NCBI GenBank assembly: GCA_934647235.1
Contig: CAKUFG010000022.1
Coordinates: 1,138 to 33,137 of the forward strand
DNA length: 32,000 nt
Direction: 5' to 3'
Source: an uncultured Clostridia bacterium
Lineage (GTDB): Bacteria > Bacillota > Clostridia > Christensenellales > Aristaeellaceae
This document shows, piece by piece, positions 1,209 through 25,372 of the stretch. Made by a program: the position numbers and the translations under genes. Position 1 is the stretch's first letter. The number at the start of each line of letters is the position of its first letter. The notes under the pieces are model-generated. The model was not told where the DNA came from, did no database searches, and saw only the letters and a program-made list of their open reading frames with translations.

Positions 1209-1365
1209 GAAGCCTTCCCCTTGAGGGGAAGGTGGCGAGTGAAACGAGCCGGATGAGGTGTAGCCGCCCAAGCGGCGTTTCTTTATCGCTTTGCTAACGG
1301 CTGCTACGCAGCCTACACCTCATCAGTCAGCTTTCGCTGACAGCTTCCCCTCCAAGGGGAAGCCT
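1209..1365. repeat. Two inverted copies of the modular hairpin repeat, forming a ~157-bp imperfect dyad in the grpE-dnaK spacer
   Basis: Forward unit: GCCTTCCCC-TTGA-GGGGAAGG, GGCGAGTGAAACGAGCC, GGATGAGGTGTAGCC, GCCGC-CCAA-GCGGC. Reverse unit: GGCTGC-TAC-GCAGCC, TACACCTCATC, GTCAGC-TTTC-GCTGAC, GCTTCCCC-TCCAA-GGGGAAGC. The same modules recur at 19039-19605, 22100-23052 and 25005-25061. Confidence 0.85.
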
Positions 1366-19038: not shown

Positions 19039-19605
19039 GCACGACTATAAAAGCCTTCCCCCTGAAGGGAGCCGGAGTACCGCCCCTGCCTGTGGCAGAA
19101 TAGGGCGGGCGCAGGCTCAATGAGGCAACGAGTATTTGAGCAATATTTTGCTCAAATACGACTATGCCGAATTGCGGACAAGGTGTCGAGCCGCAGCGAG
19201 ACGGATGAGGGGGAACGTAACGGATTAATATTGCTTGCATTTCCGCGCAGCAGGCCCCCTCATCAGGCTCATTGCATTCGCCAGCTTCCCCCCTAGGGGA
19301 AGCCTTATTTGTGAGTGCTCTGACGCGGGTATCGCAGAGCGTTTGTTGACAAAAGCACGACTATAAAAGCCTTCCCCCAGATGGGGGAAGGTGTCGAGCC
19401 GCAGCGAGACGGATGAGGGGGAACGTAATGGATTAATATTGCTTGTATTTCCGCCAACAAGCCCCCTCATCAGGCTCATTGCATTCGCCAGCTTCCCCCC
19501 GAGGGGAAGCCTTATTTGCAAGCTTTCTGATATGGTTATCGCGGAACGCTCGCTGACAAGTGCACGACTATAAAAGCCTTCTCCCAGACGGGAGAAGGCT
19601 TTTAT
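19039..19605. repeat. Array of the modular hairpin repeat: ~207-bp tandem unit (19355-19561), an earlier copy carrying a ~109-nt insertion, ending in a terminator-like hairpin A
   Basis: GCACGACTATAAAAGCC recurs at 19039, 19355 and 19562. Inverted unit pairs lie at 19176-19304 and 19365-19511. GATGAGGGGG pairs with CCCCCTCATC. Lone hairpin aaaaGCCTTCTCCCagacGGGAGAAGGCtttt at 19572-19603. Confidence 0.85.
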
Positions 19606-19697: not shown

Positions 19698-21482
19698 TCA
19701 GAACTCGATCTTCACGTAGATGTAGGCGGCGGCAGCACCAGCCAGTTCATCCGCGACGCTGATAGCCTTCTCGAATTCGTAGGCCTTTTCGGCAGTGATG
19801 TCCTTGGAGGGAGCTTCGTTCACGAAGGTCAGGAACGCTTCGGTGGGAACGGCGCTCAGCTCGTACTTAACAGTCACAGTGCCTTCCTTCACTTCGACAA
19901 CCAGCTTGCCAACCTTGGCGCCCTTAGCGTCAACCAGGTCCAGCTCAGTGATGGCGTCTTTGCTCAGGTCGATCTTAGCATAATCGGCAACTTCCTCGCC
20001 CTTTACGAAAGCGATGGTCTTGCCAGAGGTCTTGGTGGAGGTGGAGCCGGTAGCAGGAATGTACTTCTTGCCCAGCTGCACGCCGCACACGGTGCACTTC
20101 TGGATCTTCTTGCCTTCCTGGGTAGCGGAGGGCTTGCGAACCAGTTCCCATTCGCCGGGGGTATGGCCGGTGGCGGGGATCTTTTCGGTGGTGGTGCCTT
20201 CCTTAACAGCGCCGCACACAGAGCAAGCGATGCCCTTCAGGCCGTCTTCGGTGCAGGTAGCAGCCTTGATGACGGTAGCGGCAGCGGGGAACTTGTGCTC
20301 CTTGCTAGCCTTTACAGTGCGGGTCTTGCCGGTAGCGCCGCAGACCTTGCAGGTTTCGGTTTCTTCGTAATCTTCGCAGGGCTTGCCTTCCTTAACGGCC
20401 TTCCACTCGAAGTCATGATCCAGCTTTTCGAGGGTAACGGTCTTCAGGGTAGCGCCGCAGCGTTCGCAAACGGTGGTAGCAGTGCCTTCGGCAGTGCAAG
20501 TGGGTTCGACAACGGTGGTCTTTTCAACATGCGTCAGAGCATCATCGGTATTGGTCCAGCTCTCCAGCACTTCGCCGCAGCGGGTGCACTTGAAGCCGCC
20601 AACACTGCCCTTGCCGCAAGCAGCAGGAGTCAGAATTTCGGCCTTGGAAGACTTCTTGTGGCCAAGAGCAGCGATTTCCTTGGTTTCGGTATAATCGCAG
20701 CGCTCGCACTTGGCAGTCTTGGAGCCCTTCTCAGTGCAGGTAGCCTCGGTAACAGTGGTCCAAGTCAGGTTGTGACCCAGCTTGGAGCCTTCAGTCTTTT
20801 CAACCTTCTGCTTGCACACAGAGCAAACCTGGTATACGACCTTAGCCTTTTCGCAGGTAGCTTCGCTCACAATGTACTTATCGCCAGTAAGAGTGTGTTT
20901 GCCAGTGGCCTTGATGGGCTGACGGGAGCCTTCCTTTTCGTGGTTGCAGCCAGGAGTGGTGCAAACCAGGGTGGTGTAACCATCTTCGCCGCAGGTAGGC
21001 TGCTTGGTGTACTTGGCATATTCATGGTTGCCAGTAGCAGGAATAGTTTCCTTGGTCAAGATCGCGCTGCACACAGAGCAACGAGTCTTAACAACATAGC
21101 CGTCCTTATAGCAGGAAGCAGGAACATTGTTCTGAGTATAGCTAGGATCAGCCGCTACAGGAGTATGCTTGCCGGTGGTGGCGATGATCTTTTCTTCCTT
21201 GTCGCCGCACACAGTGCACACGCGCTCTTCCTTGCCCTGATCCTTGCAGGTGGCCTTATCTACTTCTACCCAAGCGCCCCAGGTATGAGCCTTCTTGGCG
21301 ATGGGTTCTTCATAAGAAGTGCCACACTTAGAGCAGGTGTAGGTTACTTTGCCTTCAACCTTGCAGGTAGAATGGATTTCAACCTTGGTCCAATTGTGGT
21401 CGCAGGTTTCAGCGGCCAGACAGGGGATCGCGATCGCGATCAACAGAGCCGCAACCACGAGTACGCGAAGAATTTTCTTCAT
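19698..21482 (-). CDS. Secreted protein with 11 tandem ~36-47-aa His/Cys3 mini-repeats plus a ~110-aa C-terminal domain; function unknown
   Basis: ORF trimmed to MKKILRVLVVAALLIAIAIPCLAAE (signal peptide; RBS GGGAGG). Repeats follow H-x(8-16)-C-x(7-9)-C-x2-C(G), for example HTWGAWVEVDKATCKDQGKEERVCTVCG. Codon usage is AAG/GAA/ACC/GCT/GTT rich. Confidence 0.8.
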   Translation of the reverse strand: MKKILRVLVVAALLIAIAIPCLAAETCDHNWTKVEIHSTCKVEGKVTYTCSKCGTSYEEPIAKKAHTWGAWVEVDKATCKDQGKEERVCTVCGDKEEKIIATTGKHTPVAADPSYTQNNVPASCYKDGYVVKTRCSVCSAILTKETIPATGNHEYAKYTKQPTCGEDGYTTLVCTTPGCNHEKEGSRQPIKATGKHTLTGDKYIVSEATCEKAKVVYQVCSVCKQKVEKTEGSKLGHNLTWTTVTEATCTEKGSKTAKCERCDYTETKEIAALGHKKSSKAEILTPAACGKGSVGGFKCTRCGEVLESWTNTDDALTHVEKTTVVEPTCTAEGTATTVCERCGATLKTVTLEKLDHDFEWKAVKEGKPCEDYEETETCKVCGATGKTRTVKASKEHKFPAAATVIKAATCTEDGLKGIACSVCGAVKEGTTTEKIPATGHTPGEWELVRKPSATQEGKKIQKCTVCGVQLGKKYIPATGSTSTKTSGKTIAFVKGEEVADYAKIDLSKDAITELDLVDAKGAKVGKLVVEVKEGTVTVKYELSAVPTEAFLTFVNEAPSKDITAEKAYEFEKAISVADELAGAAAAYIYVKIEF

Positions 21483-21704
21483 GTTCGATTTTCCTCCCAA
21501 TAAATTTTGCTTGGTTATTTATATAACAGCCGCTGCCGACTGTTATAGCAATTTCCGCGCCGGCCTCAGAGCGGGAATCGCAGCATGACCCGCAGCAAGC
21601 GTAGCACGCCGCGGCACTTTATCATGTAAACTGCCCTCCTTTCCCGCGCACGCATTGGGGGCACGAATTACGCACCCGGTACTGCGCATGAGACCGTTTA
21701 CCAT

Positions 21705-21733
21705 AGTATAAATGGAATTACTGGGAATGTCAA
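21705..21733 (-). promoter_or_regulatory. Near-consensus SigA promoter driving the His/Cys-repeat gene through a ~195-nt leader
   Basis: Minus strand reads TTGACA, 17 nt (ttcccagtaattccatt), then TATACT. No other CDS lies between it and the ATG at 21482. Confidence 0.6.
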
Positions 21734-21938
21734 TATGATTTGGTAAGAAAAATTTTAATATTTTCCTGATGATTCGACACAAATTGTTATTTATTATAAT
21801 GAAGAAACTATGGTCAAAACGGTCGGACGGCAAGTTAGCTGTGCGTAACCGGCGCACACCCGGCCCTGCCGCCCCCTGCCCCGCGATCTCCTCGGCGCGG
21901 AAAATGGAAAAAATCATAAAAGAATTTGAATTTACCCC

Positions 21939-21967
21939 TTTACAAACCGCGCGGGGTGTGGTATTAT
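21939..21967 (+). promoter_or_regulatory. Putative promoter of tRNA-Ala with an extended -10
   Basis: TTTACA, 17 nt, then TGgTATTAT. It ends ~11 nt before the mature tRNA 5' end. Confidence 0.45.
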
Positions 21968-21978
21968 AATTGCTGTTC

Positions 21979-22054
21979 GGGGCATTAGCGCAGCTGGTAG
22001 CGCACAACACTGGCAGTGTTGGGGTCAGGAGTTCGAATCTCCTATGCTCCACCA
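21979..22054 (+). tRNA. tRNA-Ala (anticodon GGC), CCA encoded
   Basis: Manual cloverleaf: acceptor GGGGCAT/ATGCTCC with the G3:U70 Ala identity pair, D arm GCGC-AGCTGGTA-GCGC, anticodon arm CAACA-CTGGCAG-TGTTG, T arm AGGAG-TTCGAAT-CTCCT, then ACCA. 76 nt in total. Confidence 0.9.
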
Positions 22055-22058
22055 ATAG

Positions 22059-22087
22059 AAACCGGATGCTTGGCATCCGGTTTTTTT
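22059..22087 (+). terminator. Intrinsic terminator after tRNA-Ala
   Basis: ACCGGATGC-ttg-GCATCCGGT followed by TTTTTTT. Confidence 0.75.
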
Positions 22088-22099
22088 GTTGTGCGGTTG

Positions 22100-23052
22100 G
22101 GGGATGAGGGGGGACGAGGGTACGCCGCTGCGGCGTTACCTTTTAGTTTGTCGTGATAACGGCTACTTCGTAGCCTACACCTCATCCGGCTGGCATCGAG
22201 AGAACGCCGCTGCGGCGGCTACACCTCATCCGGCTCATTGCATTCGCCACCTTCTCCTCAAGGAGAAGGCTTTGGGTTGGCCGTGCTGGCCAGCATATGC
22301 AGGGTGCTGCGTTTGCCCCTCATCCGTCTCGCTGCGGCTCGACACCTTCTCCCAGACGGGAGAAGGCTTTCATGGTCGTGCTGTTGTTGAGTTTAGAAAG
22401 TACATTGCCGCATTGACGCAATCGCCAAAAGGCTTCCCCTTGAGGGGAGGCTCCGCCGTAGGCGGTGGTGAGGTGTAGGCTACGAAGTAGCCGTTATCAT
22501 AACTATTAATAAAAGATAACGCCGCTGCGGCGGCTACACCTCATCCGCTTCACTGCGTTCAGCACCTTCTCCTCAAGGAGAAGGCTTTGGGTTGGCCGCA
22601 TTTTCCAGCATACGCATATCAATGCGTTCCCCCTCATCCGTCTCGCTGCGGCTCGACACCTTCTCCCGAGGGAGAAGGCTTTCATGGTCGTGCTGTTGTT
22701 GAGTTTAGAAAGTACATTGCCGCATTGACGCAATCGCCAAAAGGCTTCCCCTTGAGGGGAGGCTCCGCCGTAGGCGGTGGTGAGGTGTAGGCTACGAAGT
22801 AGCCGTTATCATAACTATTAATAAAAGATAACGCCGCTGCGGCGGCTACACCTCATCCGCTTCACTGCGTTCAGCACCTTCTCCTCAAGGAGAAGGCTTT
22901 TGGAGGAGGATCCTTGCCAGCATACGTGAAACGCTGCGTTCCCCCTCATCCGTCTCGCTGCGGCTCGACACCTTCTCCCGAGGGAGAAGGCTTTTATAGT
23001 TATGCGGTTGGCAAGCGAGGAAAGCCTTCTCCCAGACGGGAGAAGGCTTTCC
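22100..23052. repeat. ~950-bp array of the modular hairpin repeat: macro-units at 22203-22517 (315 bp), 22518-22829 (312 bp) and 22830-~22998 (partial), plus flanking partial units and a terminal hairpin A
   Basis: AACGCCGCTGCGGCGGCTACACCTCATCC recurs at 22203, 22518 and 22830. A 56-nt block catggtcgtgctgttgttgagtttagaaagtacattgccgcattgacgcaatcgcc is identical at 22371 and 22683. There are 9-10 hairpin-A modules in both orientations. Confidence 0.9.
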
Positions 23053-23080
23053 TAATATATCATCCATATCGTCCCAGCGC

Positions 23081-23707
23081 TCAATCCGCGCGCGGCAGGT
23101 TCCAGTGGAAGGTCACGGACAGCGCGCGGATGACCATCACCACCAGCGCGCCCAGGATCATGGCCGTAGCCTGCCCGGCCACGCGCCACAGCAGCGCGCA
23201 CACCAGCGCCCCGGCCAGGGACGCGCAGGCGTACACATCCTTTACAAAGATGTAGGGCGTATCGCCCGCCATCACATCGCGCAGGATACCGCCGCCCACG
23301 CCCGACAGCACGCCCACAAACACCGTCAGGTAGATGCCTGCCTCCGGCTGCGCGGCATAGGCGTTGCTGACCCCGACCACTGAGAAGATGCCCAGGCCGA
23401 TCGTATCCATCGCCAGCATGGTGCGCTGATAGGCGTTGTGGTTGCCCGTCAGGTAGTAGCGCACGGGCCTGATAAACACAATAGCCGCCACCAGCGTGGC
23501 CGTGAAGGCGTAAATGGGGTTCTGAAACGTATAGGGCGGAATAACGCCCAGCAGCAGATCGCGGATAATACCGCCGCCCACGGCTGTGGTCAGCGCCAGC
23601 ACGCACACGCCAAATATATCCATCCGCTTGCGGATGGCGATGATCGCCCCTGACACGGCAAAGGCCACCGTGCCGATCAGCTCCAGCGCCAGCACAAACG
23701 CATCCAT
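23081..23707 (-). CDS. Trimeric intracellular cation channel (TRIC/UPF0126, YadS/YicG-like) membrane protein
   Basis: 208-aa ORF with duplicated UPF0126 motifs (GTVAFAVSGAIIAIRKRMDIFG...GGGIIRDLLLG and GVGGGILRDVMAG). RBS AAGGGGG present. Confidence 0.85.
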   Translation of the reverse strand: MDAFVLALELIGTVAFAVSGAIIAIRKRMDIFGVCVLALTTAVGGGIIRDLLLGVIPPYTFQNPIYAFTATLVAAIVFIRPVRYYLTGNHNAYQRTMLAMDTIGLGIFSVVGVSNAYAAQPEAGIYLTVFVGVLSGVGGGILRDVMAGDTPYIFVKDVYACASLAGALVCALLWRVAGQATAMILGALVVMVIRALSVTFHWNLPRAD

Positions 23708-23849
23708 GCGCCCGCCCCCTTTCCAGTCTACAGCGCATTATATATCATGCCATGCCGCGCGCGCAAGCGTCCCGCGCATGAAAAAATAAAGGAAAAACGC
23801 CGCCTGTGTCGAATGGTAATATTTATACGTTTTTTGTAAGGAGAGGCCC

Positions 23850-24782: not shown

Positions 24783-24862
24783 GGCGCGGCAAGAAGGCTT
24801 TATTATTTGAGTTTTGAAAGACGCTTGGCCGTTCTATAGATACGAGTGACAAATGCAGCCAG

Positions 24863-24987
24863 CCCCGTGGCACGCCGATGGAATCGGCGCGGGCTGGCGA
24901 AGCCAGGCCAAGGGGGAAAAAGCGAAAGGCTGACTGGGCGAAGCTTGCTTCAGACCAGGCAGCACAAGGTTTTCACCTGCCACGGGG
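24863..24987 (+). repeat. 125-nt structured element bounded by 10-bp terminal inverted repeats, copy 1 (candidate ncRNA or MITE-like element)
   Basis: CCCCGTGGCA...TGCCACGGGG closes the element. Internal hairpins are CGCCGAT-GGA-ATCGGCG, CTGGC-GAA-GCCAG, GAAGC-TTG-CTTC(A) and GCTGACTGG/CCAGGCAGC. Strand is guessed from G.T pairs. Confidence 0.6.
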
Positions 24988-25004
24988 AATGCTATCCGGC
25001 AGAA

Positions 25005-25061
25005 CCCCTCATCCGTCTCGCTGTTCGCTCGACACCTTCTCCCGCTTGGGAGAAGGCTTTT
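25005..25061. repeat. Single reverse-oriented unit of the modular hairpin repeat, lying between the two 125-nt elements
   Basis: CCCCTCATCC, then GTCTCGCTGTTCGCTCGAC, then CCTTCTCCC-gctt-GGGAGAAGG, then CTTTTATAGTTATGCG. Confidence 0.8.
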
Positions 25062-25143
25062 ATAGTTATGCGCTATGCAAGAAACTTGGCTGTTCTGCCC
25101 AACTACCGCAGTCAGCCATGCCTGATTTTCGCACCCAATCACG

Positions 25144-25268
25144 CCCCGTGGCACGCTGATCGCAGATCAGCGCAGGGCGTGCGCAGCACGACCATAGGGG
25201 AAAAATGAAAAGTTGCCTGGGGGAGCTTGCTCCTAACCAGGCAACTTAAGTTTTTCCCTGCCACGGGG
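25144..25268 (+). repeat. 125-nt structured element bounded by 10-bp terminal inverted repeats, copy 2
   Basis: Same termini and same length as copy 1. Hairpins are CGCTGATC-GCA-GATCAGCG, CGTGC-GCA-GCACG, GGAGC-TTG-CTCC and AGTTGCCTGG/CCAGGCAACT. The helices differ from copy 1 by paired changes. Confidence 0.6.
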
Positions 25269-25372
25269 CACAAAACGGCAGTGCCGCCTTCCAGTTTTAT
25301 TCAATTGCCTTTCACGTCACACGCAGCCTTCTTTGATTCTTTCTTGGGCTCCAAGAAAGAATCGTACCCCTT

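Follow-up and report, generated by a model that had tools for sequence, protein, structure and literature searches.

The BoxC repeats of Escherichia coli have been a curiosity for 30 years, known for the triplexes that they form in the test tube and previously from Proteobacteria only. They are compared here with a kilobase-long array of hairpin modules in an uncultured Clostridia bacterium (contig CAKUFG010000022.1), the analysed stretch of which, 32,000 nucleotides (nt) in length, is referred to as the window. BoxC, which was also described as PIT (Hoyne et al. 2000) and as TMECO (Holder et al. 2015), has its parts in the same order as the modules of the window. The TMECO pattern, CCCTCNCCC N3-6 GGGNGAGGG N3 GGGNGAGGG, is that of a class II purine-motif intrastrand triplex, and formation of the triplex in vitro was demonstrated by circular dichroism and nuclear magnetic resonance; the elements are strictly intergenic, often occur as inverted pairs and are tied to locus variability, and no link between BoxC and mobile elements was found (PMC4666352). 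TMECO and the modules are alike in being G/C-rich, with 8-10 triplets, a first loop of 3-6 nt and one T in the third strand, and both are intergenic and multi-copy, with frequent inverted dyads and locus variability. They differ in the second loop, which in TMECO consists of 3 nt (TTA or CCG) whereas in the modules it comprises a T and a covarying hairpin of 12-25 nt. In addition, the window uses CCTTCTCC, GGAGAAGG and GGATGAGG in the place of the TMECO arms, and one class of modules (type 1) adds a GTAG-tagged hairpin, hairpin C. Published searches were limited to loops of at most 6 nt (1-6, ITxF) or at most 10 nt (0-10, Hoyne et al. 2000) (PMC4666352), so that modules with a hairpin of 12-25 nt as second loop were invisible to them. 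Reports of TMECO are confined to Proteobacteria and place none of the copies on mobile elements; the range of the modules, by contrast, takes in Clostridia, Acidobacteriota, Planctomycetota, Bacteroidota and phages. An earlier note on this DNA knew of no described equivalent in Clostridia. The element is not peculiar to that class, since the core also occurs in Proteobacteria and the other groups just named, and a described relative exists in BoxC/PIT/TMECO, which has the same architecture (PMC4666352).

The hairpin-loop and short-loop forms are connected by alphaproteobacterial sister families, in which arms identical to those of TMECO (GGGAGAGGG / GGGTGAGGG) are combined with the hairpin in the second loop, hairpin B. 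Hairpin-loop modules with exact TMECO arms (GGGAGAGGG ... GGGTGAGGGG) share their set of loci with short-loop, BoxC-like copies, and the two belong to a single family. H-DNA resembles the modules in the mirror symmetry of its purine tracts, in its reverse-Hoogsteen triplets and in being linked to polymerase stalling and instability, but it arises from duplex mirror repeats under supercoiling, whereas the extra inverted pyrimidine arm of the modules allows one strand to supply all three. The rhizobial RIME, Sm-repeats and A/B/C palindromes, which are intergenic structured repeats of the alphaproteobacterial genomes that also contain many of the matches, were compared by description only. Searching the literature by sequence strings returned nothing relevant, REP surveys do not cover the module, and comparative triplex evidence of the present kind was not found in the accessible literature.

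Judged from sequence comparison, the array is probably a tandemly amplified cluster of long-loop BoxC-type intrastrand-triplex repeats that work at the level of DNA. In the proposed structure, the purine-rich strand, once single-stranded, would fold into a class II purine-motif intrastrand triple helix. The homopyrimidine and homopurine arms would pair as hairpin A and, past one T and a compact hairpin B, a third strand of G, A and T (the GGATGAGG box) would fold back antiparallel onto the purine arm, where it would be held by reverse-Hoogsteen G·G-C, A·A-T and T·A-T triplets. The tip of hairpin B would usually be a C-GNA-G mini-hairpin, with tandem G.A pairs in the stem as the other option. 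Such a structure would be transient in vivo, appearing on single strands exposed by replication, transcription or repair, and might impede polymerases and promote slippage or unequal recombination; this impediment and slippage would account for amplification of a unit of 312 base pairs (bp), for a copy-number difference between near-identical strains and for avoidance of the sense strand in phage operons. The likeliest function would be that of a polymerase-stalling DNA structure that drives local amplification. The broader proposition, that the modules constitute a pan-bacterial and phage DNA family kept by selection as an intramolecular triplex with a GNA mini-hairpin cap, is put forward tentatively, as a possibility.

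Each module consists of a pyrimidine arm, a loop, a purine arm, one T, the covarying hairpin B and a purine box, in this order. The core pattern CTTCYCC-N3-7-GGRGAAGSTG-N14-20-RTGAGG has 12 matches in the 32,000-nt window and none in 100 shuffles. Twelve modules of the window have a mirror-compatible third strand (none in 50 dinucleotide shuffles), with perfect triplets in seven (8/8 or 9/9) and one mismatch in five. In all 12, hairpin A has arms of 7-9 bp around a loop of 3-4 nt, and the second loop measures 18-20 nt; it reaches at least 10 nt in 231 of 254 modules. The type-1 purine arm GGAGAAGG when reversed reads GGAAGAGG, and the corresponding box is its mirror image, GGATGAGG. The type-2 purine arm GGGAGAAGG when reversed reads GGAAGAGGG, and its box, GGATGAGGG, differs solely by a change of A to T, which would be tolerated because T·A-T is permitted in a purine-motif triple helix. 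DNA nearest-neighbour folding predicts hairpins A and C and the Watson-Crick forms of hairpin B, while for most modules it gives an unpaired box. A strict regular expression finds 14 copies of hairpin A, and two degenerate forward copies and one decayed copy bring the number to about 17, as the earlier note had counted; its description of the anatomy (hairpins A, B and C, the GGATGAGG box and a mosaic of alternating orientation) was likewise correct in every part.

The evidence for a third strand comes mainly from covariation. Part of the motif was fixed in the patterns used to collect the loci, and the copy numbers and the taxonomic breadth given below are therefore lower-bound impressions rather than unbiased estimates. 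Outside the search pattern, pyrimidine/purine hairpins with asymmetric arms could be examined as by-catch in the genome loci (120): a perfect mirror partner lies within 30 nt in 28.3% of the hairpin-strands, compared with 3.4% (maximum 8%) when arms were permuted between families and 11.5% for direct-repeat alignment. More than 10 variants of the purine arm each have their own mirror box, including GGGGGAGA with third strand AGAGGGGG, AGGGGAGG with GGAGGGGT, AAGGGAGG with GGAGGGAT, GAGGGAGG with GGAGGGAG, and GGAGAAAGGAG with GAGGATAGAGG. The same architecture without sequence relationship is also seen, at L105:680-735 and L089:5699-5745: one of these members, A-rich and with a long loop, TTTTCTTTTTT-tag-AAAAAAGAAAA-21 nt-AAAAGAAAAAA, has 11/11 triplets, and the other, with a short loop, GGAGAAAGGAG-TTA-GAGGATAGAGG, has 11 triplets.

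A designed prediction was then applied to metagenome contigs with the pattern CCTCCCYY-N3-6-RRGGGAGGTG-N10-24-GGAGGG, in which positions 7 and 8 of the third strand (t7t8) are left free, and which yielded 121 unique modules. When the arm class (r1r2) is AA, t7t8 is AT in 19 modules, TT in 2 and other in 1; with AG, it is GT in 18, GA in 1 and other in 4; with GA, it is AG in 26/26; and with GG, it is GG in 39/50. The association of r2 with t7 (Fisher p=2e-30) and of r1 with t8 (p=6e-22) is strong, whereas the crossed positions give p=0.18 and 0.57. Module copies can be treated as independent because hairpin B differs in nearly every copy. The result was replicated in viral contigs, with counts of 47/0/0/92 and 84/0/1/51 (p=3e-38 and 6e-37). 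The rule extends to an inverted base pair: when the purine arm ends in C, with a 5' G as partner, the third-strand base that faces it is T, and when the arm ends in G, this base is G (p=1e-19 and 1e-22). In the purine motif, a C-G inversion is preferentially faced by T. To our knowledge, no process of duplication or inversion yields mirror symmetry, and mirror symmetry is not read by a dimeric protein. A switch of alternative pairing, in which box and purine arm compete for the pyrimidine arm, was also considered and rejected: the AG and GA classes follow mirror order, and a box competing by Watson-Crick pairing would take direct order. The simplest explanation of the mirror covariation would be selection for a three-stranded structure, and only a three-stranded DNA structure, among the readings considered, accounts for the triplets that are kept, including T at the inverted C-G. 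The mirror covariation thus shows the box, which the earlier note had called conserved, to be the potential third strand of a triple helix and not a REP tag or a site bound by protein.

The covariation also bears on a REP/BIME-type origin, in which single-stranded hairpins are mobilised by RAYT (TnpA_REP, a Y1 HUH protein) and the box serves as guide or cleavage tag. This origin is unlikely. Small GC-rich palindromes in an intergenic mosaic of alternating orientation are common to both, and in type-1 modules (T)GTAG stands directly 5' of hairpin C, as in the GTAG-tagged REPs (PMC3733652). Moreover, separate loci of the window have copies with identical hairpin B and with flanks in common, as in 19349-19423 and 22313-22387 (repeat I1, 75 nt at 88%), from which it follows that the elements spread duplicatively. 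However, recognition by a transposase does not predict mirror covariation of two purine tracts, and the module core, far from being a single palindrome, is a three-part mirror and inverted structure. Its sequence is conserved across phyla and shared with phages, in contrast to the lineage-specific sequences of REPs. The imperfect palindrome of REPs, 20-40 bp with a conserved 5' GTAG or GTGG, has its counterpart in hairpin C of type-1 modules, being absent from type 2 and from most copies elsewhere, including nearly all non-clostridial ones. None of the 30 large open reading frames (ORFs) of the window, the part of the genome that was searched, encodes a RAYT or Y1 transposase, and BoxC is likewise without a link to mobile elements (PMC4666352). 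The likeness to REP/BIME that the earlier note had proposed stands at the level of an intergenic mosaic of small structured repeats and fails beyond it. The one part with a REP-like look is hairpin C, preceded by its (T)GTAG on the 5' side, and it could be an add-on compatible with the triplex.

Hairpin B gives an indication of the nucleic acid involved. Among the matches listed, it changes sequence freely yet remains a hairpin, in contrast to the box and the two arms of hairpin A, which are conserved. Its closure falls exactly at the boundaries of arm and third strand, with the single T unpaired, in 162 of the 231 long-loop modules. Triloops in hairpin B are GNA in 105/119 cases, 101 of these 105 with a C-G closing pair, and tandem G.A/A.G pairs occur in the stem of 22 hairpins B, including GTCGAGC-CGCA-GCGAGAC of the window. 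C-GNA-G is the rule of the very stable DNA mini-hairpin GCGNAGC, in which the closing pair is decisive and of which the RNA version is much weaker (PMC13037366, PMC3201870). Hairpin B follows the rule of the d(GCGNAGC) mini-hairpins of Hirao and co-workers, with the differences that in the modules the mini-hairpin tops a stem that is longer and covaries freely, and connects a triplex, and that the known natural mini-hairpins lie at priming sites of phages and plasmids. RNA strands are reported to be excluded from purine-motif triplexes (PMC4666352, citing Semerad & Maher 1994). Two RNA readings of the motif were considered. For the tandem G.A pairs, a K-turn or other RNA reading finds no support, as the same position is also occupied by Watson-Crick hairpins with GNA triloops, and a hammerhead-like reading of CUGAUGAGG fails because most copies have CGGAUGAGG and because GAAA and stem III do not follow.

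A role at the RNA level is improbable to much the same degree as a REP origin. It would make the modules terminators, mRNA-stabilising hairpins or small RNAs, with long hairpins formed by dyads or a pyrimidine-motif RNA triplex formed by the C-rich strand. Pyrimidine-motif intrastrand triplexes are possible in RNA (PMC4666352). In the window, CTTT(T) comes after hairpin A when the C-rich strand is read, and a loose scan rates three copies as terminator-like; cluster 1 of the modules lies inside the hrcA-grpE-dnaK operon, in the grpE-dnaK spacer, where all 8 contigs of the species have it. On the other hand, an A-run that would give a U-tract is found in only 10-18% of modules, so that they are probably not general terminators, and PIT elements showed neither promoter nor terminator activity (PMC4666352). 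In the complementary strand, the conserved third-strand T would cause an internal A·A-U mismatch in the pyrimidine-motif triplex, which would also need 5-7 protonated cytosines, and the C-GNA-G triloop is a signature of DNA and not of RNA. The array itself is poorly placed for transcription because it lies between two convergent, terminated genes. A clear match to an Rfam family, which the earlier note would have taken as a refutation, was not obtained; at the gathering threshold, the window gives tRNA alone, and at E<=10 tRNA and noise, with nothing credible over the array.

Phages supply evidence on orientation. Both module patterns have at least 120 matches in the viral contigs of IMG/VR, and the multi-copy viral contigs encode portal, terminase, major head, integrase and DnaB-like proteins; an exact 26-mer of the type-2 module of the window was not found in the viral contigs. 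In such contigs, which belong to real phages or prophages, the modules are strongly co-oriented: one of the viral loci (L260-L499) has five copies, all of them on the same strand, among genes for the portal and further structural proteins (L382:711-4870). The purine strand is located on the strand with C-rich flanks in 140 of 170 viral loci (p=3e-18). Where phage genes are co-directional, their strand being called by GC periodicity (correct for 9/9 genes of the window), the purine strand is antisense in 271 cases and sense in 131 (p=2.5e-12); the C-rich version is accordingly on the sense strand in 67%, as an RNA-level role would also have it. Genome and metagenome loci lean in the same way without reaching significance (45 versus 35 and 50 versus 36). 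The purine strand thus appears to be selected against on the non-template strand or the lagging-strand template, which fits polymerase blockage.

The module core is present in at least five phyla and in phages. With one genome per species, the core pattern has at least 120 matches, as has each of the other three general module-pattern scans of the collections. The matches listed include Rhizobium, Bradyrhizobium, Agrobacterium, Caulobacter, Brevundimonas, Xanthomonas, Lysobacterales and Crenobacter, so that Alpha-, Beta- and Gammaproteobacteria are represented, as well as Acidobacteriota, Planctomycetota, Bacteroidota and many Clostridia. The location is intergenic by preference: stop-free stretches across modules have a median of 584 nt, compared with 1302 nt at random positions in the same loci (p=1.7e-33). 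The commonest layout is the facing dyad (125 pairs, median gap 40 nt). One hairpin A often serves overlapping modules on both strands (median gap -17 nt), each side having its own hairpin B and third strand, so that either strand could form the triplex. That the facing dyad, i.e. a module, about 40 nt and an inverted module, is a mobile unit in the manner of a miniature inverted-repeat transposable element would agree with its frequency and its multi-copy, intergenic occurrence, but is very improbable: its arms are not maintained as terminal inverted repeats, as hairpin B differs between them, and solitary modules and hairpins A shared across strands are common. No cognate insertion sequence turned up in about 3.7 Mb of loci, in which no dedicated search for insertion sequences or target-site duplications was made.

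Within the window, the modules form four clusters, all intergenic (1213-1362, 19176-19602, 22100-23050 and 25006-25056). The third of these contains the array, a tandem repeat at 22199-22994 with a period of 312, 2.5 copies and 92% matches (Tandem Repeats Finder, TRF), whose start is given as 45 nt past the terminator of tRNA-Ala (GGC). Each macro-unit has two reverse modules and one forward module. The earlier note had described an array of three units of about 312-315 bp each after tRNA-Ala and the same modules at other sites of the window, and coordinates and repeat families bear out the former as the three further clusters do the latter. The features of the array and its left border are as follows.

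21979-22054, plus strand: tRNA-Ala (GGC), left border of the array (ARAGORN; Rfam tRNA, 64.7 bits).
22057-22085, plus strand: intrinsic terminator of the tRNA gene, a 13-bp stem followed by a T-run (terminator scan).
22100-22137, plus strand: orphan third-strand-like box GGGGATGAGGGGGG and small hairpin ACGCCGCTGCGGCGT, left over from a module and lacking hairpin A (sequence, box match).
22154-22198, minus strand: truncated type-1 module with hairpin C, CTACA and CCTCATCC, without hairpin A; 31 nt at 100% to forward copies (inverted repeats I15/I16).
22199-22513, no strand: macro-unit 1, 315 bp (TRF; repeat family D2).
22203-22269, minus strand: R1a, type 1; pyrimidine arm CCTTCTCC, loop TTGA, purine arm GGAGAAGG, T, hairpin B GGCGAATGCAATGAGCC with tandem G.A, third strand GGATGAGG (8/8), then TGTAG, hairpin C and GTT.
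22273-22316, no strand: variable spacer of about 40 nt beside the third strand of R2a, its sequence changing from unit to unit (D2, 79-83% identity).
22317-22366, minus strand: R2a, type 2; arms CCTTCTCCC / GGGAGAAGG, third strand GGATGAGGG (9/9); its hairpin B, GTCGAGC-CGCA-GCGAGAC with tandem G.A, is the commonest in the window.
22431-22495, plus strand: F3a, a degenerate copy of type 1, with a T.G pair in hairpin A; hairpin B CCGCC-GTA-GGCGG, third strand GGTGAGG (6/7), then TGTAG, hairpin C GGCTAC-GAA-GTAGCC and GTT; forms a facing dyad with R1b.
22514-22825, no strand: macro-unit 2, 312 bp (TRF; repeat family D1).
22518-22584, minus strand: R1b, type 1; hairpin B GCTGAACGCAGTGAAGC, third strand 8/8.
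22632-22678, minus strand: R2b, type 2; third strand 8/8.
22743-22807, plus strand: F3b, identical to F3a (D1).
22826-22994, no strand: macro-unit 3, partial (TRF).
22830-22896, minus strand: R1c, type 1; third strand 8/8.
22944-22990, minus strand: R2c, type 2; third strand 8/8.
23021-23050, no strand: solitary hairpin A, AAAGCCTTCTCCC-AGAC-GGGAGAAGGCTTT, without third strand (repeat and hairpin A scans).

Over 234 nt (repeat D1), units 2 and 3 are 100% identical, and unit 1 is set apart by repeat D2 (120 nt, three copies, 79-83% identity), which spans the variable spacer; the length of this spacer is the typical gap of facing dyads elsewhere. That a common spacer rich in terminators was merely duplicated on the spot, without wider significance, a reading for which the identity of units 2 and 3 and the resemblance of hairpin A to a terminator might be cited and which the earlier note had kept in reserve, is refuted by modules at three other sites of the window and at hundreds of unrelated loci. 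The remaining clusters have the following members.

1213-1279, plus strand: type-1 module in the grpE-dnaK spacer, in a facing dyad with 1296-1362; third strand 7/8.
1296-1362, minus strand: type-1 module, S=C/K=T variant; hairpin B GTCAGC-GAAA-GCTGAC.
19176-19213, plus strand: type-2 module without the 5' half of hairpin A (repeat comparison).
19258-19302, minus strand: module with 6/7 triplets.
19370-19419, plus strand: type-2 module with 8/9 triplets, in a facing dyad with 19465-19509 over a spacer of about 45 nt.
19465-19509, minus strand: module with 6/7 triplets.
19573-19602, no strand: solitary hairpin A (repeat and hairpin A scans).
25006-25056, minus strand: solitary type-2 module with 9/9 triplets.

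A perfect 11-bp AT-rich hairpin, TATTTGAGCAA-TATT-TTGCTCAAATA, lies at 19131-19158 in cluster 2, between decayed and truncated modules. The solitary triplex module at 25006-25056 is flanked by the two copies of a second, unrelated repeat of about 135 nt (24860-24997 and 25140-25272, plus strand, 82% column identity), which have 12-nt inverted ends, GCCCCGTGGCA...TGCCACGGGG, and inner hairpins that differ by compensatory changes. This repeat has no Rfam match at E<=1, and is either similar to a miniature inverted-repeat transposable element or a small structured RNA.

To the right, the array is bordered by a convergent gene at 23081-23707 (minus strand) for a TRIC/UPF0126 channel of 208 amino acids (aa), of which the solitary hairpin at 23021-23050 is likely the terminator; a 228-aa ORF at 23052-23738, considered as the right-hand gene, is spurious. 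As the earlier note had held, no genuine ORF covers the array, the 130-aa ORF at 22086-22478 (plus strand) being translated repeats. Together with the 113-aa ORF at 22914-23255 (plus strand), it specifies repeat-derived peptides such as ...TPHPAHCIRHLLLKEKALG.... The array, tRNA-Ala and a gene for a 600-aa Cys-rich secreted repeat protein (19698-21500, minus strand) are situated at a synteny breakpoint, as seen by comparing 21500-23081 of the window with L123/L125/L127/L128:4627-4701. In these species, whose TRIC protein is 88-89% identical, the spacer measures 74-78 bp and a glycosyltransferase gene lies downstream; neither a tRNA nor an array is present at the site, and no module occurs within 8.5 kb. 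A metagenome scaffold (L121) that is 99.3% identical to the window has exactly one 312-bp unit fewer, which may be either a true polymorphism or an assembly collapse. Macro tandem arrays that contain modules were found in seven other loci (L018, L012, L184, L354, L434, L446 and L485), with periods of 113-453 bp, e.g. 453 bp x 2.8 at 99% for L018:798-2053, and their presence in unrelated organisms indicates that amplification of module clusters is recurrent.

Several points weigh against the interpretation of the modules as triplex-forming DNA. The CTTCCCC/GGGGAAG sub-family, to which five copies of the window belong, keeps an A opposite a G-C pair, and this systematic wrong triplet persists even in the by-catch copies; the commonest TMECO type of E. 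coli likewise has one mismatch (PMC4666352). The two forward copies of the array are degenerate, with 6/7 triplets and a T.G pair in hairpin A. For TMECO, in vivo footprinting with dimethyl sulfate (DMS) in E. coli detected no stable triplex, and the duplex form gave no triplex signal (PMC4666352). PIT elements had no measurable effect in vivo on replication, transcription or conjugation in earlier work cited by the same paper (PMC4666352). A role of the complementary strand as RNA could equally lie behind the orientation bias in phages, and the unit missing from the metagenome scaffold could have been lost in short-read assembly, given the 234 bases over which units 2 and 3 are identical. Finally, the triplex is here a structure deduced by comparing sequences.

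If the broader proposition of a pan-bacterial and phage family is correct, the three-way covariation, across hundreds of independent copies, would be the first comparative-genomic proof that a tertiary structure of DNA forms and matters in vivo, and the strand bias in phage operons would point to an interplay with transcription or replication. The BoxC/PIT/TMECO family is far larger and wider than known once the second loop may be a hairpin, and reaches gut Clostridia and phages. The reverse-Hoogsteen triplets are preserved by evolution, the connector of the modules is a DNA-specific mini-hairpin, and their orientation in phage operons is constrained. For genome annotation, repeats of this type will seed spurious 'hypothetical proteins', ORFs and small RNA predictions, and tandem arrays of modules may collapse in gut-metagenome assemblies. 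Triplexes of bacterial DNA in vivo would become testable by comparative genomics, with defined sequences available for biophysics and for assays of replication and transcription.

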